Below are positions 5,059 to 18,571 of a stretch of DNA of 32,000 nucleotides, one piece after another (positions within the stretch are counted from its first letter, which is position 1; the number at the start of each line of letters is the position of its first letter). Under the pieces are notes generated by a model, which did not search any database, was not told the DNA's origin, and saw only the letters and a list, made by a program, of their open reading frames with translations. The stretch lies in NCBI GenBank assembly GCA_963169695.1, contig CAUJDS010000076.1:14452-46451 (forward strand), read 5' to 3'. This stretch comes from Bdellovibrionota bacterium (GTDB taxonomy: Bacteria; Bdellovibrionota; UBA1018; CAUJDS01). Both the position numbers and the translations under genes were made by a program.

Positions 5059-5237
5059 AATAAAATCCTTAACTTATATCCAAGCACCAGTATTCCCGAC
5101 AAAAACAGTCTTATAACAAGATTCTCGCAGTGAGTCCAGAATTTTCTGGCTTCCTCGAAGTCCCGAATCCATTGAGTTTTATACCATACTAAAATTGACC
5201 GTTATTTACAGTTGTGCTAAGCAAAGCCGAGGTCCAA

Positions 5238-8174
5238 ATGAGCCGCTACTTAAAAAACTGTCTCACCGCCCTCCTTCTCAGCTTGGTTTTGAACGCTGGC
5301 AATGCAACGTCAGCCCACGCAGTTCCTTTTGACGAAGGATTCTACTCTTTTTGGGAAGAAGCACTTCCTCTGGATAAGATTCAATCCAAATACGGCATTG
5401 CTATATCTCGAGAAGCACTCGCCAAAGCCGGCTCCTCGATAGTCAAATTTCAGATCCCTTCACTACCGGGATACTCAACCGGTAGCTTTGTTTCTTCCCA
5501 AGGATTGATCATCACCCATTCTGCAATGGCTGAGCTTTGCCTGCAGGGGTATCAAGAAAAGCACGCGAACTTTAAAATTTCAGAAGAAGGTTTTTTTGCC
5601 AAGCACCTCACAGAAGAAGTTCCTTGCCCTGGCATGGTAGTGACTCGCGTGCACGCTGAATCCGATGTGACCAACGAGATCGAATCAACTTTCGAAATCT
5701 TTCGCAGCCTTATTTCTCGACCCATGTATGGTCCTCCCAATCCACATCCCACCTCTCCTTGGGATGACGATGTGGACTGGCAGGCTTTTCAATTCGACGA
5801 GCCGCAACTTCCACTGGACTCAGCTCAAAGTAATCCTGTCATTGGACCTCTGCTGCCCAAGGATGCCCCGAAAAAGGTATCCCCGCTCAGTGTGATGGTT
5901 TCTCACATCGGCATGGAGGACTATATTGACGTCCTTCTCTCGGATGAATACTCTGCCCTTCCAGAATCTGGATTGGATCCAGCGATGGCCGAAGACGTAA
6001 AAATACTCAAAGAAATGTCGGGTGCTTTGAAAAGTGGCCAATTTGATGTTGATCTCGAAGCTGAAGGAGCCTATCAGGCAGCTCTGTATAAGGACCAGGT
6101 AAAGAAGACACTGCTCGGCCAACCCAGCGCAGTAACTGCAATTCACAAGGCCTTTGAGTTAATTCTGAACTGCGAAGGAATCGAACCTTCCAAATGGAAT
6201 CCCACTCAGTATTGGGATGAATTCACGGCACAGACTGAGCACTGCCAGCTGAAACGATACAAAGACAGCATGGGAAATCGCAACTTTGCGATCGTTAAGT
6301 ACGACACGCTTCGTGATATCCGACTGGTCGCAGTACCGTCACCCGGAGCATTAGCATTGAGCAAAAAAGTACCACCAGGAACCGTGCCGGCTATTCGAAT
6401 GGATTTCTCTATTTTTCGAGCCTACGGAATGGAGAATGGCCTTCTACCGAACGTTCGAATGGGAGAAAGCCTTGGCACACTCAAAGAGGTGGCAACCCTT
6501 GGGTCCATCAACAGCGTCCTGACTCCAAATGAATCCAATCGACCCTTGAATTCCTCAGAGTTCTTTCTCCCTCCGCAGTTTGATTCCAAAATGGAGGAAG
6601 GAAATTTTTCGATGACCCTAGGGCATCCTATGGAATTTGATCGTCAAAAAAATTACTTTCAATTTAAAATTCTGGTGGAATCCAAAATTCCGGCCGCGCT
6701 AGGAAACGTAGAAGCCATGATTCCAAGCTTACGAGCCAAAGTCTATGAACTTGCAAGTGACCCGAGTCCTAAAGGTAAAAAGCTCTACCAGGAAGCGCTC
6801 GCTGCCTATCAAAGCAATTTGAAATTTCGCGATGCCTACCAAGCACTTGCCAAAGAACTCGTTCAACCGAATTATCTCGAACGCAGGAATGAACTCATTC
6901 AAGAAATTAAGTTAGCAGCTGAAAAGAACCCAGAAGATGCTCAGGCGAAGACTACCTTGGAACAAGTAAAAAAGGCTCAGGACCTCACCGAAGAGTATCA
7001 AAAGATTTATCCCTTCTACTTTCTTGTTTTTGAGTGGCTAAATAGCGGCGTGGTCCAACCCATCAATACCTTATTGGACGTTCAGGAACAAATTGCGGCT
7101 ATTTCCAACAAACTCAAATCTGACGAAGATCGAGATGAACTTCTGAGGACCATTCTCCCAAAATTTTCCAAAATAAAATCTGCCCTCTTGGGCATTCCCC
7201 TTGCGTCTTACAAACAGGTCATCAGTCAGAAACTTCTTAGCTCCATCCTCGTGATGGCCAGAAAGAAAGAAGTCCCCGTCTTTACCGAACACTTCAAGCC
7301 ACAGGAGGGTATTGAGGTAGTGGCTATTGCTCATGACTTGTTGAATGTGTACCCAATATTACAAATCGACACCTACCCCGATATAGAATTGATGTCTGAG
7401 AAATGGCAGCCAATTTCTCCAAAAGCCAAAGAGCTCGTTTCCTTGATCCGCCAGATCAGGAGAATTTTTACAGCTATTGACACTAAAATGAAGAAAATCG
7501 CAAAGGAGCTCGGGAGTCTCAGCGAGGAACTGCGAGTAGTTGATAGGTATGGAATTATTGAGACGTCGGTACCTAATCGATTGCCACGATTTAGTTATGG
7601 AACGATTCGTGGGACGGAATCCACCCCAGCAGTAATGAAGGCATCTTACCTCAAGGAGAATGCGATTGCCTTTGCTCCCCTCAAATCTGCAGAGAGGTCT
7701 CTCGCTAGAGACCTCATTGAAAAATTGGGAGAAACTCCTTACTTGTTTCAATCGGATGCCGATACGCTGACCGGTTTTGATTTTCCGGATCTTGGAATTG
7801 AGCACGAGTACTACTACCCTGGAGGTATGGCACTTGTGGATGAGCACTTCCGGTGGCATGGACTTCAAGTAGATACGAACAGTGAAGCAAGGGCCAATGT
7901 GTTTGAATATAGCGGTGATCAATCTGCGAGGGCTATTGTATTGAGTGCAAATGCAATCATGGGGTATTTGGACCTCAATGCAGACGCAAAAAGATTGAAG
8001 GAAGAACTAACTTATTCCACCAAGGGAAGAGGTTACTTTGAGTCTACAGAGAGTGGAAAATCTGAATGGTGCCTTTTGGAAACTCCTAAGATAACAGGTC
8101 AAGAGAATAAGAAAAATCAGAACTCCTCAGGGAAGAGCTCTGACTGCAGTACCGATTTAATCAAAATAAAGTAG
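5238..8174 (+). CDS. secreted S46 (DPP7/DPP11/DAP BII)-like peptidase homologue, probably non-catalytic, with large insertions
   Basis: The track ORF starts at GTG 5214. ATG 5238 follows a GAGG SD and gives a signal peptide ([28 protein letters not shown]). The N-terminus matches the recalled S46 pattern (DEGFY.., [19 protein letters not shown] vs [38 protein letters not shown]..DVT). The C-terminus aligns with the S46 serine region, but GNSGSP is replaced by TGFDFPD. Confidence 0.6.
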   Translation: [978 protein letters not shown]

Positions 8175-8274: not shown

Positions 8275-9102
8275 TTAGAGCAATTGCAACGCTTTATTAG
8301 GCGCTGAATTTGCTTGAGCTAGAACGGAGATTCCTGCGTGGCTCAGAATGTTCTCACGAGTGAGTTCTGAGGTTGCAAGAGCGATGTCCGTGTCTGCAAT
8401 TCGGCTGCGAGCTTGAGACTGCATTTCTTGAGAAATTCTCAAGTTATTGACCGATGATTGCAGCTTATTCTGCATGGCTCCAAGGTTAGCTCGACCGGCA
8501 TTGAGCCTGTCGAACGCCTTGTCCACTGATTCGAGCATCTCTCTAGCTGAATCCTTAGATTCGGTAGAGGCACCATTGATTCCCAATGTATCCGTGCTGA
8601 GATCGTTCTCGCTGACTTTGAATACGACGCGAGACTCTTCACCCGATCGGATACCAACTTGGAACTCAAGGTCCTTGCCGCCACTGCTAAGCAGAGGAGT
8701 ACCGTTGAATTCTGTAACTTTTGCTATGCGATCTACTTCATCCTTCAAAGACTGAACTTCTTTGTCGATGAAACCTCGCTCGGTGTCGCCAATGGTGTCC
8801 GAAGCAGCTTGAATCGCAAGTTCGCGCATACGAACGAGGATGTTGCTAGCTTCAAACATTCCACCTTCTGCTACTTGCACGAGAGAAATGCCGTCATTCG
8901 CATTTCTTTCTGCTTGAGCAGTGGATCGCAACTGAGCACGCATGTTTTCACTAATGGACAAGCCTGCGGCATCGTCACCAGCATTGATGATTCGATTTCC
9001 TGAGGCAATTCTTTGATATTGCTTCGATTGCTTTTCACCCGTAGACGCCAATTGTCTTTGAGTTGCCAGCGAAGCGGTATTGGTCGCTATTCTTAAGCCC
9101 AT
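8275..9102 (-). CDS. fliC: flagellin (short, about 275 aa, lacking a large variable domain)
   Basis: MGLRIATNTASLATQRQL...GNRIINAGDDAAGLSISENMRAQLRS...ANDGISLVQVAEGG N-terminus and C-terminal ...RIADTDIALATSELTRENILSHAGISVLAQANSAPNKALQLL are canonical flagellin D0/D1. SD AAGGAG lies 8 nt upstream. Confidence 0.96.
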   Translation of the reverse strand: MGLRIATNTASLATQRQLASTGEKQSKQYQRIASGNRIINAGDDAAGLSISENMRAQLRSTAQAERNANDGISLVQVAEGGMFEASNILVRMRELAIQAASDTIGDTERGFIDKEVQSLKDEVDRIAKVTEFNGTPLLSSGGKDLEFQVGIRSGEESRVVFKVSENDLSTDTLGINGASTESKDSAREMLESVDKAFDRLNAGRANLGAMQNKLQSSVNNLRISQEMQSQARSRIADTDIALATSELTRENILSHAGISVLAQANSAPNKALQLL

Positions 9103-9483: not shown

Positions 9484-10314
9484 TTAGATTAGCTTGAGAG
9501 CTAACTGACTATTGGCGTTCGCTTGACCGAGGACCGACGTACCAGCGTTAGCAAGAATGTTATTCTTGGTAAGCTCAGATACTTCAGACGCGATGTCGGC
9601 ATCATAGATGCGACTTCGGGCAGCGGACAAGTTTTCGTCATAGATCTTCAAGTTGTTGATGCTCGACTCTAATCGATTCTGAAGTGCACCCAGGTGAGCG
9701 CGGTTTTCAGAAAGTTTAGAGATCGACTTGTCGATCATGTCTAGGTTGTTTTGAGCAGACTCTTTCGTTAGTGCCGAGACATCGGAGAGTCCCAGTGACT
9801 CAAGTCCGGTCTGTGTCTCAGTCGTATTGTAGACGAAGCGGTCATGCTCTGGGTTGTTATGTGTACCCACTTGGATTTCAACAATACCACCTTCACCCGA
9901 AAGCAAGGCACGGCCGTTGAATTCCGTCGTCTTAGAGATACGATCCACTTCATTCTTCAACTGCTGAACCTCCTTGTCGACAAAGCCTCGCTCGGTGTCG
10001 CCAATCGTGTCAGAAGCAGCCTGAATAGAAAGCTCTCTGAAACGAATCAGAATATTTCCAACTTCGTTGAGGCCCCCTTCAGCTACTTGAACCATCGATA
10101 CGCCGTCTTGGGCGTTTCGAACGTCCTGACGAATCGAACGAACTTGCGCTCGCATTGTTTCAGAAATCGCCAAGCCAGCGGCATCGTCAGCAGCTCGAGT
10201 AATTCGAGCACCTGATGCCAATCGCTCTTGAGTACGACCAACTTGATTGTTGGTGTTACCAAGATGACGCTGCGCAGCAATTGACTGCGTATTTGTCGCA
10301 ATTCTCATTCCCAT
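9484..10314 (-). CDS. fliC: flagellin (second tandem paralogue, about 276 aa)
   Basis: MGMRIATNTQSIAAQRHL...ARITRAADDAAGLAISETMRAQVRS...AQDGVSMVQVAEGG and C-terminal ...RIYDADIASEVSELTKNNILANAGTSVLGQANANSQLALKLI. Start chosen at ATG 10314..10312, 5 nt after AGGAG. The track's GTG at 10320 overlaps the SD. Confidence 0.96.
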   Translation of the reverse strand: MGMRIATNTQSIAAQRHLGNTNNQVGRTQERLASGARITRAADDAAGLAISETMRAQVRSIRQDVRNAQDGVSMVQVAEGGLNEVGNILIRFRELSIQAASDTIGDTERGFVDKEVQQLKNEVDRISKTTEFNGRALLSGEGGIVEIQVGTHNNPEHDRFVYNTTETQTGLESLGLSDVSALTKESAQNNLDMIDKSISKLSENRAHLGALQNRLESSINNLKIYDENLSAARSRIYDADIASEVSELTKNNILANAGTSVLGQANANSQLALKLI

Positions 10315-10421
10315 ACACACTCCTATAAAGAAGTATACATACCAAATTACTTTGGTATATTTACTATTTGTTTCGATAATTTACTGGATATGCTGTACCC
10401 AGAAAAACCATCTTGTTGACT

Positions 10422-10477: not shown

Positions 10478-11299
10478 CTAGAGATCAGAGAACTCGGGGT
10501 CAATTTCTAAGCCTGCTTCGACATCCCAGTTGGTATCGAATTCATCGACCGGATCCTGGGCCATTGCCGAGCCGGAAGTAGGACTAGGCGCTGCAACCCT
10601 AGCTGGAGCCACAGGGGTCGGCTCTGCCATTACTGGAACACGAAGCCCGTACTTCTCAAGCACTGACCCGGTCTGTTCAGCTGGCCGTCTCCAAATCGAA
10701 GAAGGATCTGGGCCCGTCTCAACTAGAAGCGCGGTCATATCAGGCGAAAGCGTTAGTGACTGGTAGAAAACTTGTTCACTCAATTTGCGATACTCGTGGA
10801 TCGCCCAACGAAGGTAACGAGTGTCTTGAAATTCCTTCTGAAATGCTCGAGCAGTAGGAATCAAGGTGCTAAACGCCGACAAAACCTGTTTCTGCTTTTC
10901 GAGTATAGATTCCGTTTTTTCTAGCGAGGTGTGCAACTGCCTAAGGCCATCATAAAAGCACCAGTGCGCCTTGACGGGTTCATCAGCCACCCACTCCAGG
11001 GCACCTCGATCTCTTTCGTCCCGACTGACGGTTTTCTCATTGAGTGTCTGGAGCACTTTCTCACACCCCTTCCAGACGTCCGGACTAGGGACGTCTGGGC
11101 CTAGGAATACCGCTTCCAGATCAGCCCACTCATACCCAGAAGGATGACGCACTCCGGCAATTTCCGGGACCACCGGAAGTGGCTCTAATGGCGGAACTTC
11201 CTTCGTAGTCGAGCAAGACGCTATGGTAAATCCAATGCTCATCATCAGGAACAATCTAGCAATTTCAGATAGATACATTGTTCGTACCATTTCAGTCAA
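10478..11299 (-). CDS. hypothetical lipoprotein (start uncertain: TTG 11299, ATG 11290 or ATG 11278)
   Basis: Lipoprotein signal (..LFLMMSIGFTIAS|C), a Pro-rich linker and an acidic C-terminus (DPVDEFDTNWDVEAGLEIDPEFSDL). No family recognised. A sigma28-like promoter abuts the 5' end. Confidence 0.65.
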   Translation of the reverse strand: MTEMVRTMYLSEIARLFLMMSIGFTIASCSTTKEVPPLEPLPVVPEIAGVRHPSGYEWADLEAVFLGPDVPSPDVWKGCEKVLQTLNEKTVSRDERDRGALEWVADEPVKAHWCFYDGLRQLHTSLEKTESILEKQKQVLSAFSTLIPTARAFQKEFQDTRYLRWAIHEYRKLSEQVFYQSLTLSPDMTALLVETGPDPSSIWRRPAEQTGSVLEKYGLRVPVMAEPTPVAPARVAAPSPTSGSAMAQDPVDEFDTNWDVEAGLEIDPEFSDL

Positions 11300-11300
11300 C

Positions 11301-11328
11301 TTATCGGCAAAACCTTGACGCAGATTGA
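11301..11328 (-). promoter_or_regulatory. sigma28-type promoter for lipoprotein gene 10478..11299
   Basis: Minus strand reads TCAA-N16-GCCGATAA. The -10 is a perfect consensus and the spacer is 1 nt longer than canonical. The -10 ends only 2-11 nt before the candidate start codons, implying a very short or absent leader. Confidence 0.5.
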
Positions 11329-11411: not shown

Positions 11412-12599
11412 ATGATGTTTTTCAAAATGAACGTCGCAAGCGGTGCGAAAATTTCTCTCTTTTTTGGGATGGCGGTATTCCTTTTGCACCTCTTTGCCTA
11501 CGCTGGCGACGACACAAGCCCCGCAATTAATCCTCCAGCGGAAGAACAACAACTTCCAAAATCCGAGGGAGCAAAATCGCAACTGAAAGCTCCAGCAACC
11601 AGTACTCACAGCAGAAATTTCTATCAAGTCCTGGAAGATGTACTTGGGGATTTTGAGTACGACCTCAACAATGGGCAAGTCCAAGGCCTAAAGGGGCTCG
11701 CGATACGCTCTATTGCCACCAGTGAAAACGTACCACCTTCATTCAAAGACCACATTGACCTCTTGATCAAAGAACGCGTTTTGAGTTCAACCAAGAACAA
11801 GATCATTAATTGCATTCAGTGTCGTTCTCAAAATGCCGTACTCAACGGAGACCAAGTTACCATCTCATCTCCGCAATCCAATCCTGCAGAGCTCAATCGG
11901 ATTGCCAAACAAATGGGCATCGATCACTTCATGGACGTCGCATTTGCCTACCAACCGAATGGCCTCATTTTATCGCTCAGTATTTCTGAAACGGACGGCA
12001 GTGATTCCGTGATTTGGTCACGAAGTTACAACTCTGAAACCTCGCGAGCGTCAGCATTTCGAAGAGGGGTTGACTACAACCAACTCGACGAAGCCAGAAA
12101 GAGCGTTGAGTACCAGCCGACCGTAGTGTATCGCCCAACGCTTTACTACCTCTTTGAGAACGATACGACGGGTTACGTGGGCACACTGGGCTTCGCTTTC
12201 CGAATGGTGGAACGCTATGACAACCGCAAAAAAGAAGTGGGATTTGAACTGAACTACCTCATGGACAGCGGATCTCTTGTCGGAAGCACGAGCACTTCTG
12301 ACTCTGTTTTTCGCAGCTTCAATATTACGCTCTTATTTGTTCATTCCTGGAATTTGATCGGTGACGTTGAATCTTACAATCAGGTGAGAGGCAGCGTCTT
12401 CACTGCAGTAGGAGGCACTTACGGATCAGGTTTCCTTGGAGCAGTTGTTCGTGGTGGATATGAGTGGCGCCTAGGCAAGCATTGGGCAGTGCAGGGTCTT
12501 TTGGGGTACCGTCCACAGGCTTCAAAATTTCTAAACGGGGTAGCATCTGGGTCCGTTTCTGGCTTTGAATTCGGAGTGGGGATCAGTGCACTGTACTAA
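11412..12599 (+). CDS. predicted outer-membrane protein: FlgO/CsgG/LpoB-like alpha-beta domain fused to a C-terminal beta-barrel
   Basis: Signal peptide (..FFGMAVFLLHLFAYA|G). The N-domain (LKGLAIRSIATSENVPPSFKDHIDLLIKERVLS ... AELNRIAKQMGIDHFMDVAFAYQPNGLILSLSISETDGSDSVIWSRSY) fits the recalled CsgG/FlgO/LpoB-type pattern. The C-terminal ~170 aa have alternating amphipathic strands and end in ..GFEFGVGISALY (aromatic terminus typical of OMPs). Confidence 0.6.
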   Translation: MMFFKMNVASGAKISLFFGMAVFLLHLFAYAGDDTSPAINPPAEEQQLPKSEGAKSQLKAPATSTHSRNFYQVLEDVLGDFEYDLNNGQVQGLKGLAIRSIATSENVPPSFKDHIDLLIKERVLSSTKNKIINCIQCRSQNAVLNGDQVTISSPQSNPAELNRIAKQMGIDHFMDVAFAYQPNGLILSLSISETDGSDSVIWSRSYNSETSRASAFRRGVDYNQLDEARKSVEYQPTVVYRPTLYYLFENDTTGYVGTLGFAFRMVERYDNRKKEVGFELNYLMDSGSLVGSTSTSDSVFRSFNITLLFVHSWNLIGDVESYNQVRGSVFTAVGGTYGSGFLGAVVRGGYEWRLGKHWAVQGLLGYRPQASKFLNGVASGSVSGFEFGVGISALY

Positions 12600-13299
12600 G
12601 AAGATCATACTCGCACTCAAGCTCTTCGGACTTTACGCACTTGGCGCCACAGCATGCTCGTCTATCCTAAGTTCATCCGATGATGGACAAGCTGGCGCAC
12701 CGATAGACAATCCTTTTGGAAATTTTTATGAGGAATCCAATAAATCCAATCAGGGCGTCATTTTGCGCTCCCGCAAAGGGGCTCAGACCGTCGAAGTAGA
12801 ACTCCCAAAAGAAGGCCACGACCGTACAAACTTTGTCATACCTATGACTGCCGGATCTTTTCAACCACCGGCCAACCAAACGGCTAGTGCCCAAAACTAT
12901 TCTCATTACCGCTCCGGCCTATCCGACCGAGAAATTGCCGGGACTTTTCCAAAAGGAAGCCCCGAGCAAGTCCAAAAACGTTCTGAAATGGAACGAGATT
13001 TGGGTCTTATTCCTTCTCAGAATGATTCTCCAACCAACGATCAAAGCTATTTGGGATCCATCGATCAAGTGAAGATTCTGTATCGTCAGGGCCGGTACGA
13101 GGCTGGCCTTATTGAAATTGACCAGATACTGCGCCGCTATCCAACGGATCCGAGACTGCACGAAATGCGTGGCACTCTTTTGGATCGAATGGGCCAAAAG
13201 GAACTGGCCCGACAAGCTTGGAATCAGTCCTTAGAACTTGAACCCAATAACGAAGGACTCAAGAGATTTCTCACTCGTAGAATTGCGAGCAAACCATGA
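12586..13299 (+). CDS. TPR-repeat lipoprotein
   Basis: GTG 12586 lies 9 nt after GGAG and gives VHCTKKIILALKLFGLYALGATA|C (lipobox). The C-terminus carries TPR motifs (ILYRQGRYEAGLIEIDQILRRYPTDPRLHEMRGTLLDRMGQKELARQAWNQSLELEPNN). It overlaps the upstream gene by 14 nt and the downstream gene by ATGA. Confidence 0.7.
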   Translation: MHCTKKIILALKLFGLYALGATACSSILSSSDDGQAGAPIDNPFGNFYEESNKSNQGVILRSRKGAQTVEVELPKEGHDRTNFVIPMTAGSFQPPANQTASAQNYSHYRSGLSDREIAGTFPKGSPEQVQKRSEMERDLGLIPSQNDSPTNDQSYLGSIDQVKILYRQGRYEAGLIEIDQILRRYPTDPRLHEMRGTLLDRMGQKELARQAWNQSLELEPNNEGLKRFLTRRIASKP

Positions 13300-15608
13300 A
13301 GATAAGAAATCTAGTTTCGCTTCTTGTGGCGTCCATGCTAATTTCTTCCACTTCATTCGCAACACCAGAAGCATCGCTTGAAGCACTCAATCTCAAGACC
13401 AATGACGAGGTTTTGAAAATCATAAAACCTCTCATGGATAAGTACTGCAAGGACAGCTGCCAGGTACTCAGCGCAAAGCCTGAAATTAAACTTCAAGACA
13501 CCGAAGAAACCGCACCCGGATTTGATGAAATCGCGCCACAGGAAGCCCTCAATTACAAGCCAGCCCTGGTGACTGTAGATGTTCTGGTAGATGAAATTGT
13601 AGGTCAAGTCACCCTTTCGCATCTTTTTGGTATCATACAAGAACACCTGAGCATACTTCCGTACCCTGTTATCTTGAATGAAAGGCGCAAGAAATTCCCG
13701 CAACCCTTGACGTCTGTTCAAAAAATGGCGGAACTGCGCAATAAAGTGGCCACGGACTTTCGGCAGAAAATTGAAGAGCTTTTTCGTGAATTCTGTCCGA
13801 AACAATGTATTCTGGCAGACCTAGATGTTTCATTGCAACAGCGCAATTTAGAAGAAGCCCAATACAACGCTAGCGGAGAATACATTACGGACGGAGATAC
13901 CTCTGCCAAGATCAATAAAATTTCCGGCCAAATTCTCTTCGATACGACCCTTACTCCGGATGAACAAACCGCCATCTTCGAAATGGCTCAACTCAAAACT
14001 AATTCCTACAAAAGCGTCAATCTTCAAGCAAAGAGCCGCTCTTTTCCCCATCCCGAACCCTATTCGGAAGATGGTTCGAATTTGGCATATGGTCGCATGG
14101 GCGGCAAGTACAGAGGATTGAGTTCGCAAGAGAGCAAGACTCAGAAGTCTGACTCAAAGAATTCTCAGCAGACGGATCGCAGGCTTTCTTCTTCGAGCAA
14201 TAACTCTCAGACGAATCAATCCAACAGTAAGACATCACAAGAATCCCAATTCAATAAAACTCAAAACGAAAGTGCCGAGAAATCCGAAAGTTATCAACGT
14301 ACTGAGCGAATTGAGCGAGTTGAAAGTGGCGACGCGGTTCAGGCCGAATTGAAGCGGCTTTCTGTATGGGGAGTCATCTTTGCGTGTTCAGTGCTTTCTC
14401 TTCTCATCTTTATAGCATTGGCCACCTATGCACCACGATCCAAGAAATCGAGCGAAAATTCACTTCTGCAGTGGATCCAAAAGTCGCCTAAAGGATCAAA
14501 AGAGCAGCTACCAGCCAAGACTGGGCCTAAGTCATCCAATGATTCCATTGCGCGTCGCTACGAAATTGACAACCTCATAGATGAATTGACTAGGATCTTT
14601 GCAGAACATCCCAAGGTTGCCAAGCACGCCTTCACTAGAGTTCTCACGGAAGAAGGAGTCGAAATCACAGCCGCCTATATATCAATCTTGGGCGAAAGCA
14701 TCGTACTTGATCTCCTCAAGGATCCCAGCCTGCAGAATGACGTCAATGAACTCACCGAATACTACGCTAAGAACACGCTGGAATTGAAAGACGAAGATAA
14801 ACTCGAGCTGCTCAAGAAGCTTCACAATCGTGCAATTGCATCTAAGCTTCAAGTGATTGGCAATCGCTCTTCTAACGCATTTGATTTCTTAGTGGAGATG
14901 GACGGCCTTCAAATTCTTGAAATGATTCAGAATGAATCCCTTACAGTAAAGGCAATCGTACTAACTCAATGTGATACGCAAAAGCGAGCTATTATCTACT
15001 CACACTGGGACGACGACGCTCGCGCCAAGATTCTAAAAGAATTATCTCGAATTGATCACCTTCCTCGAAATTATATTTATAACGTTTCTAATGCTCTACG
15101 TCGAAAGCGGCAAGACAATCCTCGCCTCAATACCGAGGCCCTTCCTGGTTCCGAAGTACTGGTGGGCCTATTAGAAAAGTCTTCCTTTGGGCAGCAACAA
15201 CAAGTCGTGATGGACCTAGAACAGAACAATCCTGAGAGTGCACGCGTACTCAAGAGCAAACTTGTTAGCATCGACACGCTACGCTACCTCCGCGACTCCC
15301 AGTTGCTCGAAGTCGTGCTCAGTCTCAAACACGAGGAGCTGCTTGCATTCCTCAAGGGCGCACCAGACCATATTCGCAAAACCATATTTGACAAGTCACC
15401 CAAAGATTTGGCCGAGGAAATTCAGGATGAGTTGACCATGGTCAGTCCGCTCAACCGCGACACCTACCAGGTAGTGGAACGTAAGATTCTCAATCGGGTA
15501 CGCCTCATGGCAAACGACGGACTCATCAATCTCATTGAAACCAACGAACGCATGTTTGCCGAAAGTCCCGCCAACCATGCCGGAGCTAGGAGGGCCGCAG
15601 GATGGTAG
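13296..15608 (+). CDS. bitopic membrane protein: periplasmic duplicated C-x3-C module, low-complexity linker, one TM, cytoplasmic FliG-like (N/M/C) region
   Basis: Signal peptide MKIRNLVSLLVASMLISSTSFA|TPEA. TM LSVWGVIFACSVLSLLIFIALATYA (nt ~14358-14432). C-terminal LLAFLKGAPDHIRKTIFDKSPKDLAEEIQDELTMVSPLNRDTYQVVERKILNRVRLMANDGLINL is colinear with recalled E. coli FliG [65 protein letters not shown]. The FliG-middle-like segment is ILEMIQNESLTVKAIVLTQCDTQKRAIIYSHWDDDARAKILKELSRI. Confidence 0.7.
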   Translation: MKIRNLVSLLVASMLISSTSFATPEASLEALNLKTNDEVLKIIKPLMDKYCKDSCQVLSAKPEIKLQDTEETAPGFDEIAPQEALNYKPALVTVDVLVDEIVGQVTLSHLFGIIQEHLSILPYPVILNERRKKFPQPLTSVQKMAELRNKVATDFRQKIEELFREFCPKQCILADLDVSLQQRNLEEAQYNASGEYITDGDTSAKINKISGQILFDTTLTPDEQTAIFEMAQLKTNSYKSVNLQAKSRSFPHPEPYSEDGSNLAYGRMGGKYRGLSSQESKTQKSDSKNSQQTDRRLSSSSNNSQTNQSNSKTSQESQFNKTQNESAEKSESYQRTERIERVESGDAVQAELKRLSVWGVIFACSVLSLLIFIALATYAPRSKKSSENSLLQWIQKSPKGSKEQLPAKTGPKSSNDSIARRYEIDNLIDELTRIFAEHPKVAKHAFTRVLTEEGVEITAAYISILGESIVLDLLKDPSLQNDVNELTEYYAKNTLELKDEDKLELLKKLHNRAIASKLQVIGNRSSNAFDFLVEMDGLQILEMIQNESLTVKAIVLTQCDTQKRAIIYSHWDDDARAKILKELSRIDHLPRNYIYNVSNALRRKRQDNPRLNTEALPGSEVLVGLLEKSSFGQQQQVVMDLEQNNPESARVLKSKLVSIDTLRYLRDSQLLEVVLSLKHEELLAFLKGAPDHIRKTIFDKSPKDLAEEIQDELTMVSPLNRDTYQVVERKILNRVRLMANDGLINLIETNERMFAESPANHAGARRAAGW

Positions 15609-16120
15609 GCACTTCAGAAGGAAAACCAACCTTAGAGATCCTGAAAAATATTCAGCTCTTTAAGGTTTTTACTGATTCGGAACTTCAACAGCTCCTTGCC
15701 ATGGGACAATCTGAATCGCACCAATCGTATTCTAATATTGTGATCGAGGGAGAGCTATCCTGGAGCCTCTATCTCATTCTCCAAGGCACCGTCGGCATCT
15801 TCAAGACTAATCCGCTTAGCGAGAACTCTTATGATATTGGCCAACTCAAAGAGGGAAGCTTCTTTGGCGAAATGTCTCTGGTCGATGAGAATGGCCGCTC
15901 AGCGACTGTAAGAGCACTAACCGATTGCGTTGTGTTTGTCATATCCAAGGAAGCATTTTCTACTTTTCTCAATAGCTCCACTGAACGACGTACTCGATTT
16001 TACGAAAAATGCATCAAGACTCTGGTCGATCGACTCCGAGAACTGAACGATGGATATGTGATCAGTCAGTATCAACTCTGGAAATCGGCGCTAAAAAAAG
16101 ATTCCGAGGAGGCCGCCTAA
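15602..16120 (+). CDS. stand-alone cyclic nucleotide-binding (CAP effector domain) protein
   Basis: 172 aa. Canonical CNB fold motifs: LFKVFTDSELQQL..., IVIEGE....LYLILQGTVGIF, phosphate-binding cassette FFGEMSLVDENGRSATVRALTDC. AGGAGG SD. The ATG overlaps the upstream stop region by 7 nt, and its stop TAA abuts the motA ATG. Confidence 0.88.
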   Translation: MVGTSEGKPTLEILKNIQLFKVFTDSELQQLLAMGQSESHQSYSNIVIEGELSWSLYLILQGTVGIFKTNPLSENSYDIGQLKEGSFFGEMSLVDENGRSATVRALTDCVVFVISKEAFSTFLNSSTERRTRFYEKCIKTLVDRLRELNDGYVISQYQLWKSALKKDSEEAA

Positions 16121-16903
16121 ATGAACCTTTCATCATTCTTCGGTGTTTTGCTAGGAATTGGAATTGTCGTTGCAGCGATTCATGAAAGTGGAATGCAGGC
16201 TGCATTCTTTCTAAATTTTCATGGTGTGGTGATTGTCGTAGGTGGAACACTTGCAGCGGCAAGTATTAGTTTTCCACTCTCAAAAGTTCTATCTCTTCTA
16301 AGGGTATTTTTTCAACGGGTTCTAGGAAGGAATAAAATCGACTACCAATCGATCATTACCCAACTACTTGAGGCGAATCGAAAGTTCAACCTCGGTCAAG
16401 GGTCGGTAGCTGAGTTGACTGCTGGAATACAACACAGCTTCCTTAAGGAAGCGATTGAGCTTGCAGCAACAGGTGTCCTGACTCAAAAAGAAGTGAGGCA
16501 AGTCCTTGAGCAGCGTGTAAAAACTATGGAAAATCGCTATATGTACGAAGCCAATATGTTTCGTATCCTAGGGCGATTTCCTCCAGCGTTTGGACTGCTC
16601 GCCACAACCCTAGGAATGATAGCGCTACTACAAAATCTTGGTCAGCCTGGCGCAGAAAAGCTCATCGGACCAGCCATGTCTATAGGACTCGTCGGTACCC
16701 TCTATGGAATAGCACTAGCCAACCTCGTTTTTCTGCCCATCGCAGAGAATCTCACTGTGAGAACCAAGGAAGAAATGGAATTGCGTCGGATGATCATAGA
16801 GGGAGCTGTCTTACTTAAGGCGCAAGTGAACCCGATGTCTATGCGAGAGAGCCTCAATTCCTTCCTTGCACCAGGAGAGCGCGTACTGAGAAGGGCTGCG
16901 TAG
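16121..16903 (+). CDS. motA: flagellar stator protein MotA/PomA family
   Basis: 260 aa. Four TM segments with a ~100-aa cytoplasmic loop between TM2 and TM3. Conserved PPAFGLLATTLGMI (TM3 Pro) and IGPAMSIGLVGTLYGIALANLVFLPIA (TM4 Pro). GAGGAGG SD. Confidence 0.9.
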   Translation: MNLSSFFGVLLGIGIVVAAIHESGMQAAFFLNFHGVVIVVGGTLAAASISFPLSKVLSLLRVFFQRVLGRNKIDYQSIITQLLEANRKFNLGQGSVAELTAGIQHSFLKEAIELAATGVLTQKEVRQVLEQRVKTMENRYMYEANMFRILGRFPPAFGLLATTLGMIALLQNLGQPGAEKLIGPAMSIGLVGTLYGIALANLVFLPIAENLTVRTKEEMELRRMIIEGAVLLKAQVNPMSMRESLNSFLAPGERVLRRAA

Positions 16904-16911
16904 GAACACCT

Positions 16912-17739
16912 ATGGCACTTTCATTCTTAAAAAAGAAGAATCCGGAATCGGATTCGTCGGAGAAACTGCCTGACCAGCCTCATGATTCTTATCAATCAGA
17001 AGGAGATGAATCCAATTGGCTGGTGTCCTACGCGGATATGATGACGCTACTCTGTGCTTTTTTCATCATGATGTTTAGTATGTCGACCCTGCAGACGCCA
17101 AAGTTCGAGAAGGCCAGGGAAGAGGTTTCAAAGCACTTTGGAGGCGGCTATGACAAGCCCAACGCCCAACTTTCTAAGGTGGTGCAAGATTCAATTGCTT
17201 CGGCCCAATTGGGTAAGGAAGTCACAGTAAGATCGAATCCGGCAGGTGTTTCTATAAGCTTTGAATCCACGCTCTTCTTTGACAGCCTAGGCGCGGCTGT
17301 CAAATCAGATGGCCAGAAAGTTCTCACAGAACTTGCTCGATCAGTCTTGAGATACGCCAAAGACCATCAAATGAAATACAAAATTGTAGTGGAAGGGCAT
17401 ACAGACGCTCAGCCCATCTTAAGCGGCACCTTTCTATCAAATTGGGAACTATCTGGCGCTCGAGCCTCTCGAGTGGTCGACATTTTCTTGGCCCAAGGAT
17501 TTCAACCCGCTGACTTCATGCCAGTAGGGTACGGATCGACCCGACCTCGTGAGCCAAGCCGAGATTCAAACGGAAACTGGATTCCAGAAAATCTTGCCAA
17601 AAATAGGCGTGTGGTCCTGCGCATCCTAGATTCACAAGAAAACTCCATCCCTTGGAATATGGACTTGGACCTAGCTATTGATCCGCCACCCGAATCGGCA
17701 AAGTCTGCCGCCATTGCGCTTCCACCCCCTTCTCACTGA
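16912..17739 (+). CDS. motB: flagellar stator protein MotB (OmpA-like peptidoglycan-binding C-terminus)
   Basis: WLVSYADMMTLLCAFFIMMF (channel Asp in YADMMTLL). OmpA-like VVEGHTDAQP...SNWELSGARASRVVDIFL...GYGSTRP...NRRVVLRI. Confidence 0.9.
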   Translation: MALSFLKKKNPESDSSEKLPDQPHDSYQSEGDESNWLVSYADMMTLLCAFFIMMFSMSTLQTPKFEKAREEVSKHFGGGYDKPNAQLSKVVQDSIASAQLGKEVTVRSNPAGVSISFESTLFFDSLGAAVKSDGQKVLTELARSVLRYAKDHQMKYKIVVEGHTDAQPILSGTFLSNWELSGARASRVVDIFLAQGFQPADFMPVGYGSTRPREPSRDSNGNWIPENLAKNRRVVLRILDSQENSIPWNMDLDLAIDPPPESAKSAAIALPPPSH

Positions 17740-17764
17740 TCCTAGTGAGAAGAGGTCCTGCCGG

Positions 17765-18571
17765 ATGCGATGGAGTTGTCCGCATTGTAAAGTAAGTCAA
17801 AGTATTCCTGACGAACGAGTAGAGGGGGGCTGGTCTTTTGCTCGATGCTACAAGTGCAACGGATATTCTCTCGTGCGCAAGTCTGACGTCAAAACATTTA
17901 AAGTTGCACAACCACCCGAACAAGCCACCGTTCTCAATTCCCATCCCAGCGAAGTACCTCTCATGAGCCGAGAGGCTACTAACCATTTGCAATTGACACT
18001 GAAGAATGCGGCCATTCGATCCGAAAATTTTCAAGAACTGGCAAAGTCTCTTCAGAACCAAGAAGTGAATCAGACTAATGAGGGGCCAAAAAAAGCTATA
18101 AGCGAACGTATGCTTCCCTATGCCATTGGTCTTGCTGGAGCCCTCGCGCTCTTTTCCGGCGCCTACCTATTTATGGAGGGACAGTCTCTTTGGAATAAAG
18201 CACACCATGCAAGCCGAGAAGCCGATCCCATTCCAGTAGAACCTAGCATTGCAGCACCGATCAAAGATGAACTGAAAGAAGCAGCAATGGCCCCTGTTCG
18301 AGAGCCCGTACAGGAATCGGCTCAAGTACCGGAGACCGTCTTCAAACCGGAAGTCATTTATCGCTCTATCGTCATTAAGCCTCTTGCGGACCGCGTAAAT
18401 CTGCGGACTGAGCCAAACGTGCAGGCGGGTATATCCGGTACGGCGACACGTTCGGATCGCTTTACGGTACATCAATGGAAGAGCGACTGGTTTGAGGTTT
18501 CAAACGTGAAATTTCCGGATAAAAAATACTGGATCCGAAACGACTTCGTATCTGTAGCCGAAAATGAATAA
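17765..18571 (+). CDS. zinc-ribbon (MJ0042-type) / single TM / C-terminal SH3b-like domain protein
   Basis: The track ORF starts at 17678 and overlaps motB. ATG 17765 gives MRWSCPHCKVSQSIPDERVEGGWSFARCYKCNGYSL (CxxC...CxxC). TM is MLPYAIGLAGALALFSGAYLF. The C-terminus VNLRTEPNVQAGISGTATRSDRFTVHQWKSDWFEVSNVKFPDKKYWIRNDFV resembles bacterial SH3. Confidence 0.65.
   Translation: MRWSCPHCKVSQSIPDERVEGGWSFARCYKCNGYSLVRKSDVKTFKVAQPPEQATVLNSHPSEVPLMSREATNHLQLTLKNAAIRSENFQELAKSLQNQEVNQTNEGPKKAISERMLPYAIGLAGALALFSGAYLFMEGQSLWNKAHHASREADPIPVEPSIAAPIKDELKEAAMAPVREPVQESAQVPETVFKPEVIYRSIVIKPLADRVNLRTEPNVQAGISGTATRSDRFTVHQWKSDWFEVSNVKFPDKKYWIRNDFVSVAENE

Follow-up and report, generated by a model that had tools for sequence, protein, structure and literature searches.

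The window analysed here is a stretch of 32,000 nucleotides from a Bdellovibrionota bacterium (contig CAUJDS010000076.1), and all positions are those of the window. It contains an operon whose genes overlap or abut on one strand (+), and in which a FliG-like protein is encoded together with the stator subunits MotA and MotB. The open reading frame (ORF) of the FliG-like protein (13296..15608, +) starts with ATG and encodes 770 aa, composed in order of a signal peptide, two CxxxC modules, an S/N/Q linker, one transmembrane helix and a FliG-like region. A preliminary description of the window had assigned a signal peptide and a single membrane span to this ORF, and the hydropathy scan agrees: a signal-like segment lies at residues 5–24 and a single strong transmembrane segment at residues 357–379.

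The signal peptide (aa 1–22, 13296..13361, +) reads MKIRNLVSLLVASMLISSTSFA and is followed by the residues TP. It coincides with the hydropathy peak at residues 5–24 and holds no lipobox cysteine; judging from the sequence, it would be cleaved ahead of TP. An N-terminal hydrophobic segment is present in 30/30 aligned homologues. The cysteines of the protein are C51/C55 and C167/C171, plus C364 and C559.

More than 150 full-length relatives (730–840 aa, 45–60% identity over the whole length) were retrieved in a protein search. None is functionally named; the database labels are 'hypothetical', 'FliG' and 'FliG C-terminal domain-containing protein', with 'FliG' originating from JGI pipelines. 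In an alignment of 30 members, both CxxxC pairs, a PGF motif, a juxtamembrane motif, the transmembrane segment, cytoplasmic stretches and a C-terminal (K/R)KVAGW are conserved. Our literature search on the FliG/MotAB/fusion architecture yielded nothing beyond engineered fusions and unrelated paralogues of FliG, and a recent phylogeny of MotAB, which distinguishes flagellar stators from generic ones, mentions no partner of this kind (PMC12505986). The family is thus without a described member, and the earlier remark that no natural protein of this topology had been described holds for the literature searched.

The FliG-like cytoplasmic region

The FliG-like part follows the signal peptide, the periplasmic domain and the transmembrane helix, and is therefore cytoplasmic. 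The profile search proposed in the preliminary description placed two FliG domains above the Pfam thresholds. Residues 640–746 match FliG_C (PF01706; E 8e-15, 55.4 bits vs a cutoff of 23.3) and residues 539–608 match FliG_M (PF14841; E 6e-8, 33.3 bits vs a cutoff of 25), and each family is matched by 30/30 members of the alignment. The TIGR00207 FliG equivalog was not reached (63.7 bits vs a cutoff of 226.7), so that the protein, though related to FliG, is no ordinary member of that family. When the family profile was searched against the PDB, the FliG structures 3hjl, 3ajc and 1lkv were retrieved at E ~5e-10, across the M and C domains.

In the full-length AlphaFold2 (AF2) model, the predicted local distance difference test (pLDDT) values are 80–91 over residues 413–755. 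Foldseek returned 16 PDB matches with E<=1e-3 for this model, each of them FliG or FliF. Full-length FliG chains (315–331 residues) were aligned over 314–326 columns, and the isolated FliG_C structure 1qc7_B gave a template modelling score (TM-score) of 0.83 and a root-mean-square deviation of 1.8 Å. The region begins with a helical domain at the FliG_N position (aa ~413–522, 14532..14861, +; AF2 and Foldseek), which is modelled as six helices with pLDDT 82–91. It continues with the FliG middle domain (aa ~530–608, 14883..15119, +; PF14841), and with the FliG C-terminal domain (aa ~618–755, 15147..15560, +; PF01706 and 1qc7_B), which carries the torque helix SPKDLAEEIQDEL at aa 701–713. The first of these domains was matched by Pfam FliG_N in only 3/30 members (best E 0.05), and a PDB profile search and hhalign with residues 416–535 were negative for FliG_N. 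The claim of likeness along the whole of FliG therefore stood for FliG_M and FliG_C in Pfam and for the predicted fold, but not for FliG_N at the level of sequence; by predicted fold all three FliG domains are present, with the FliG_N equivalence resulting from the fold only.

We mapped functional residues on E. coli FliG from NC_000913 and counted conservation in the 30 family members. K264 corresponds to K687 (K in 29/30), D288 to D711 (E/D in 30/30) and D289 to E712 (E in 29/30). In the ungapped alignment, R281 falls on D704 (D/E in 30/30), and a basic residue, K/R703, lies one residue earlier. R297 corresponds to N720, which is S/N in the family, and the next residue is R721. Among the torque-helix charges, K687, K/R703, D/E711 and E712 are each retained by 29–30/30 members. 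The reading of the torque charges as K, K, D, E was thus correct for K687, D711 and E712, while the second lysine is K703 and the position of R281 itself is D704. Since the position of R281 is acidic, a co-variation of charge with loss of the E98-type acid of MotA was considered; it was rejected, as the MotA of the operon keeps E/D98 in 68/70 sequences.

In the middle domain, the EHPQ residues of E. coli FliG (125–128) align with N546-E547-S548-L549, and T550 comes next; of these five residues, E547 and T550 do not vary in the family. The FliM-binding EHPQ is, by alignment, replaced by a family-conserved NESLT, just as the preliminary description had it.

The protein ends in a variable C-terminal tail (15561..15608, +, stop codon included; alignment columns 901–910). 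The family tail (window 15561–15605, aa 756–770) consists of (K/R)(K/R)xAGW, also seen as (K/R)KVAGW, after a variable disordered linker with pLDDT <50. It is absent in distant variants. By its pattern, it resembles a short linear motif for docking some partner.

Compared with FliG, the protein therefore shares the M and C domains by sequence, all three domains by predicted fold, the K264/D288/D289 equivalents and the co-encoded MotA and MotB. It differs in that FliG is soluble and docked on FliF, whereas here the FliG unit is fused behind a transmembrane helix and a periplasmic domain, and also in NESLT for EHPQR, in the acidic R281 position, in a FliG_N undetected by sequence and in the extra C-terminal tail motif. 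The E-ring proteins FlgY/FlbB/MotE are likewise membrane-anchored, carry a FliG/MgtE_N-type helical domain and are linked to flagellar motors (PMC13023049). However, their armadillo (ARM)-like domain is periplasmic and encircles the MS-ring, whereas the domains here are bona fide FliG_M/FliG_C with a torque helix, and cytoplasmic.

Periplasmic modules, linker and membrane segment

The AF2 model of residues 24–262 (mean pLDDT 84.5) folds into two consecutive alpha-beta-beta-alpha-beta modules of the ring-building-motif (RBM) type. Module 1 (aa ~25–133, 13368..13694, +; AF2 domain model and Foldseek) contains C51-x3-C55 at the junction of helix 1 and strand 1, together with the invariant PGF. 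Module 2 (aa ~138–250, 13707..14045, +; hhalign and AF2 model), which contains C167-x3-C171, is a duplicate of module 1: the two are mutually homologous with an hhalign probability of 96% (E 1e-9, 103–110 columns), which bears out the earlier recognition of two similar C-x3-C modules. The CxxxC pairs (13446–13460 and 13794–13808) sit at equivalent positions of the two ring-building modules and appear as CPGRCE in relatives with one module; they may form a disulfide or a metal site.

The preliminary description had also seen a weak resemblance of these modules to FliF ring-building motifs, and proposed AlphaFold and Foldseek as a check. When the periplasmic model was searched against the PDB, the top two matches were Salmonella FliF MS-ring chains with probability 1.0 (7bk0_B, E 3.4e-7; 6scn_A, E 2.8e-6). 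The subsequent matches were a thousand-fold weaker and unrelated, and the injectisome protein YscD appeared at rank 23. Foldseek thus found FliF on the periplasmic side and FliG on the cytoplasmic side, and the resemblance was confirmed, FliF chains being the only strong matches. The TM-scores against the FliF templates are low (~0.3), as the two modules are not oriented to one another as in the templates, and the match to FliF therefore concerns module fold and order. By sequence, neither the protein (E<=1) nor the 30 members (E<=10) matched YscJ_FliF or YscJ_FliF_C in Pfam, and the family profile showed no significant match to E. coli FliF.

The modules are followed by a disordered linker rich in S/N/Q/T (aa ~255–343, 14058..14324, +; pLDDT ~31–37), which AF2 models without secondary structure and which varies in length among the homologues, with many alignment gaps. 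A juxtamembrane helix, ERIERVESGDAVQAEL, then leads into the transmembrane helix at aa 357–379 (together 14331..14432, +; hydropathy, AF2 and invariant columns). The motif EKIERVE(S/N)GDAVQAEL, on the periplasmic side of the membrane (14295–14360, aa ~334–355), is invariant in the family in the columns E337–L352. In the AF2 model this motif and the transmembrane segment form one continuous helix, residues 346–378, with hydropathy up to 2.64. The motif is placed where the plug region of MotB could be met.

The segment after the membrane span (…QPKVAKxVFSRILTEEG) had been taken, from a weak hidden Markov model alignment, as a candidate for the FliG-binding tail at the C-terminus of FliF. This idea was dropped. 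In hhalign, no comparison of the QPKVAKxVFSRIL segment, whether with FliG_N, with a synthetic fusion or with the FliF tail of E. coli, reached a probability of 1%, and a PDB profile search of residues 416–535 returned nothing relevant to a FliF tail. No counterpart of the FliG-binding helices of FliF was accordingly recognised in this protein (hhalign <1%).

Engineered FliF-FliG fusions assemble into rings (e.g. PDB 8z4d). With FliF and with such fusions the protein shares the order of periplasmic tandem RBMs, transmembrane helix and cytoplasmic FliG unit, but the fusions (PDB 8z4d; Salmonella, Vibrio) are engineered, while the present protein is natural. It also differs from FliF, as it has two modules instead of three, with a cleavable-looking signal peptide in place of the first transmembrane helix and a long disordered linker before the remaining one. 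No third RBM or beta-collar was found in the protein, which has only the two modules at aa 25–250 and then the disordered linker up to the membrane. Lacking RBM3, beta-collar and S-ring, it therefore has nothing to hold a rod or an export gate.

These features bear on whether the protein could be the sole FliF and FliG of the organism, forming the flagellar MS-ring and the top of the C-ring as one natural fusion. The ring assembly of the engineered fusions, the flagellin and fliD genes nearby and the 'FliG' labels given to homologues by JGI pipelines would fit such a role. Nevertheless, two modules running into a disordered linker offer no seat for the rod, the EHPQR motif for FliM is missing, the TIGR00207 score lies far from its cutoff, YscJ_FliF is not matched in Pfam, and the module is found in clusters without flagellar genes. 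We therefore regard a sole FliF/FliG as highly improbable.

The layout also resembles that of SctJ (YscJ/PrgK/EscJ), which likewise has a signal sequence, two periplasmic RBMs and one transmembrane helix on their C-terminal side. However, the present protein lacks the lipobox cysteine, has a FliG cytoplasmic part of ~390 residues instead of a short tail, and is placed by Foldseek closer to FliF than to any Sct protein. No type III secretion genes were found in the window or in the related loci.

The operon, its stator and the distribution of the family

The FliG-like gene is the third of the operon. The first gene (11412..12599, +) encodes a 395-aa exported protein, which by sequence pattern has a beta-barrel-like C-terminal half with the end ...GVGISALY and is a probable outer-membrane protein; it has no match in Pfam, NCBIfam or PDB. 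The second (12565..13299, +) encodes a 244-aa tetratricopeptide repeat (TPR) protein with a lipoprotein-like signal (…LGATAC; Pfam TPR_2 and TPR_14), and its stop codon overlaps the start of the FliG-like gene. The fourth (15602..16120, +) encodes a stand-alone protein of 172 aa that binds cyclic nucleoside monophosphate (cNMP; Pfam cNMP_binding, E 8e-18). It has PDB matches to the cyclic nucleotide-binding (CNB) domains of PKA-R and PKG, and its binding cassette (FGEMSL…GRSATV) is intact. The FliG-like gene had been described as lying next to motAB: it belongs to the same tightly packed operon, but the cNMP-binding gene lies between.

The fifth gene (16121..16903, +) encodes a stator A subunit of the MotA/PomA type, 260 aa long (Pfam MotA_ExbB). 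In NCBIfam it is closest to MotP, PomA and MotA (E 1e-39 to 6e-41), although all NCBIfam equivalog cutoffs are missed widely (e.g. MotP, 140 vs 394). The basic pair K/R87-88 (K87K88 here) is conserved in this MotA, E/D98 is present in 68/70 sequences, and both channel prolines are conserved in 74–75/75 sequences. The sixth gene (16912..17739, +) encodes a MotB-type stator B subunit of 275 aa (Pfam MotB_plug 59.6 bits, OmpA 47.5 bits), which retains the plug, the channel Asp (YADMMTLL) and the OmpA-like peptidoglycan-binding domain. From these residues, MotAB looks like a functional, divergent flagellar-type stator. A defence system was considered and rejected, as PADLOC gave no match for MotA, the FliG-like protein or other operon proteins; it found generic similarity of MotB to ZorB only, and no Zorya proteins.

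The seventh gene (17678..18571, +) encodes a protein listed at 297 aa, with a zinc ribbon, a transmembrane segment, a Pro-rich linker and SH3_3 (Pfam Zn_ribbon_4 and SH3_3, both below cutoff), and its true start is probably later than listed. This layout, with the linker in the periplasm, recalls force transducers of the TonB/TolA/GltJ type, but the comparison with NCBIfam GltJ was not significant (E 0.58).

Gene order was compared at 51 family loci with enough flanking sequence, and flagellin linkage at 48. The 395-aa protein, the TPR protein, MotA and MotB are each encoded at 51/51 loci, on the same strand and with fixed spacing. The cNMP-binding gene is present at 41/51 and the zinc-ribbon/transmembrane/SH3 gene at 40/51. 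In a species-level scan (one genome each), at least 89 carriers were found, all of them uncultured Bdellovibrionota of the class UBA1018, including the magnetotactic metagenome-assembled genomes (MAGs) FG-1 and FG-2. FG-1, FG-2, JAMPXJ01, CAIRTR01 and UBA1018 have been assigned to the GTDB class UBA1018, and the cells of FG-1/FG-2 are vibrioid with one thick polar flagellum (PMC13200544).

This conservation bears on a further possibility, a rotor mimic by which stators would be parked, sequestered or braked: a static, envelope-anchored FliG surface would bind MotA, keep stator units inactive or off the flagellar rotor, and release them on a cyclic nucleotide signal. The retained MotA-contact charges without a FliM-binding motif, the cNMP-binding gene between the FliG-like gene and motA at 41/51 loci, and a long flexible linker ill-suited to torque transmission would all suit a mimic. 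Its own MotAB is always co-inherited, however, even where the cNMP gene and nearby flagellar genes are absent, whereas a decoy has no evident need of a private stator. Furthermore, ring-building modules and a complete N-M-C FliG exceed what a decoy surface requires. Overall, a rotor mimic appears distinctly unlikely.

When the whole library was searched with a profile of the periplasmic domain, 138 cluster representatives were found, among which two distant types were recognised. The first comprises N-terminally extended two-module proteins of ~970 aa, one of them labelled Silvanigrellales. The second comprises one-module proteins of ~570–614 aa with MgtE_N/FliG_C signatures, and a relative of these carries the label Persicimonas sp. 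The one-module relatives match module 1 only, and their layout is one ring-building module, a Pro-rich linker, a transmembrane segment and an MgtE_N/FliG_C-like region. Searches for this short variant with the alignment profile and with a single sequence both returned the same 13 proteins.

At a locus of the extended type (L087), the gene order is outer-membrane-protein (OMP)-like, TPR, MotA, MotB and FliG-like. In the short type, a conserved cluster of 11 genes recurs at three independent loci rich in GC (L089, L090 and L085, the last on a 7.5-Mb contig). It consists of MotAB, the FliG-like, OMP-like and TPR genes and six uncharacterised genes; no recognisable flagellar structural gene was found in this cluster at any of the three loci. 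In phmmer comparisons all five core proteins are homologous across the three lineages, with matches to L087, L089 and L090 at E 5e-34 to 4e-15 for the 395-aa protein and E 1e-18 to 2e-11 for the TPR protein. The cNMP-binding gene is absent in the distant lineages. Since the five genes stay together across such distances despite reordering, they constitute a functional module. Six non-flagellated Bradymonadales genomes have a single motA without fliF, fliG, flhA, fliP, flgB/C/E and fliM/N (PMC7460792 Table S3), and this motA might be that of the short-variant cluster. In the same table, the Lujinxingia group is entered with motA=1 and without fliF, fliG or flhA.

In the present window, the strand opposite to the operon carries fliD and two flagellin genes upstream of it (1207–2616, 8275–9102 and 9484–10320, all −), and the source organism is therefore flagellated. 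These genes bear on a third alternative, an accessory role in the polar flagellar motor. The protein would then form an additional ring in the membrane, surrounding the MS/C-ring or next to it, and would recruit or position specialised stators or offer them a second torque-receiving surface. By analogy, the TPR lipoprotein and the outer-membrane protein might then be a periplasmic scaffold comparable with PflA/PflB, FlgP/FlgO or MotX/MotY. The two flagellin genes and fliD are situated 3–12 kb upstream, flagellins occur within 10 kb of the operon at 27/48 loci, class members have a single thick polar flagellum (PMC13200544), and the stator, with its plug and its best matches to PomA and MotP, is of flagellar type. 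Conversely, no flagellin lies so close at 21/48 loci, and the five-gene core occurs in distant lineages in clusters without a flagellar gene. A tblastn search with E. coli queries over all family loci found no canonical fliF or fliG within 10 kb. In addition, the 5:2 stator model implies that another FliG ring, facing the MotA pentamer from its far side, would be driven in the direction opposite to the C-ring. Taken together, we consider a motor accessory rather unlikely, though it is the main one of the alternatives.

Proposed role, and the neighbourhood of the operon

The arrangement of the domains, the conservation of the torque residues and the synteny lead us to propose that the FliG-like protein is a rotor subunit of a dedicated MotAB-driven ring machine without a switch complex, that is, a natural single-chain FliF plus FliG, with a probability of about one in two. 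The strongest functional evidence for a rotor is the synteny, with the five-gene core kept in three deep lineages; among the three functions offered in the preliminary description, it favours the rotor of a distinct MotAB-driven device. From the domain identities, the topology signals, the conservation and the synteny we infer ring formation, contact with MotA, rotation and the roles of the partners.

After export and cleavage of the signal peptide, the two ring-building modules of the FliF/SctJ type would oligomerise in the periplasm, and the oligomerisation would gather a ring of single transmembrane helices and a cytoplasmic ring of FliG-like N-M-C domains. MotA5B2 stators from the same operon, anchored to peptidoglycan via MotB, would engage the charged torque helix of FliG_C, and the ion gradient would power the turning of the ring by MotA5B2. 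As the FliM-binding motif is lost and the anchor is built in, neither a separate FliF nor a FliM/FliN switch would be needed, and, given no switch, the ring might be unidirectional or regulated by other means. The co-encoded cNMP-binding protein is likely a regulator in the class UBA1018, while the TPR lipoprotein and the outer-membrane-like protein probably serve as partners in the periplasm and the outer membrane, taking up or guiding the output. Because the parts match the flagellar torque core one for one and the engineered fusions form rings, the protein would be a self-templating rotor-ring subunit.

Several observations weigh against this proposal. The disordered linker of 60–100 residues between the modules and the membrane would transmit torque poorly, which argues against simple shaft-like transmission into the periplasm. 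The R281 equivalent is charge-reversed (D/E704), with K/R one residue before. Finally, the flagellins within 10 kb at 27/48 UBA1018 loci, and fliD in the window, make a flagellar link possible.

Other motors of the 5:2 type, namely ExbBD-TonB, TolQRA-Pal-CpoB, AglRQS-Glt, GldLM and ZorAB, also have a motor of the MotA/MotB family co-encoded with envelope-spanning partners; the envelope partners here are the outer-membrane protein, the TPR lipoprotein and the transmembrane protein with a Pro-rich periplasmic linker. They differ in lacking what the present operon combines, a flagellar-type stator (plug, OmpA, best matches PomA/MotP) and a FliG torque-helix partner. The operon might encode a self-contained, non-flagellar rotary machine with no export gate, rod, hook, filament or FliM/FliN, which we hold to be possible, at somewhat less than even odds. 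Such a machine would serve another envelope task in predatory lineages (UBA1018, the Silvanigrellales-like lineage and relatives of Bradymonadia), and would either derive from the flagellar motor by reduction or survive from a rotor older than the flagellum.

To our knowledge, FliG has hitherto been known only as a soluble rotor protein of the flagellum, and its torque interaction with MotA has been considered flagellum-specific. If our proposal is true, the torque couple of FliG and MotA works outside the flagellum, or else some flagellar motors possess a second, unsuspected rotor-like ring. The former would mark a categorically new, non-flagellar use of the couple, which we again hold at somewhat less than even odds. 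A minimal core of MS-ring, FliG and stator without a secretion apparatus would bear on the evolution of the flagellar motor, and would provide a much simpler system than the whole flagellum for in vitro studies of stator-rotor coupling.

Some minor features of the loci should also be mentioned. In the MAG FG-1, two contigs (L069 and L070) each end inside a copy of the FliG-like gene (query residues 1–580), and the two copies could reflect duplication or an assembly split. At L085 (6055–8295), the OMP-like and TPR genes apparently form one ORF of 689–746 aa with an internal lipoprotein signal, and a second frame carries the C-terminal barrel end ...ARVSFNW. A gene fusion was rejected; the arrangement is probably a frameshift of the long-read assembly.

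Scans of the window for promoters and terminators (sigma-70, terminator, sigma-28 GCCGATAA, sigma-54) gave results at chance level throughout. The only GCCGATAA box of the window (sigma-28 −10-like, at chance frequency) is at 11301–11308 on the − strand, at the 5' end of a divergent gene for a 273-aa lipoprotein-like protein (10478–11299, −; …IGFTIASCS), which stands beside the operon at 61/83 loci. Further upstream, a 986-aa protein with a peptidase S46 domain (5214–8174) is encoded among the fliD and flagellin genes.

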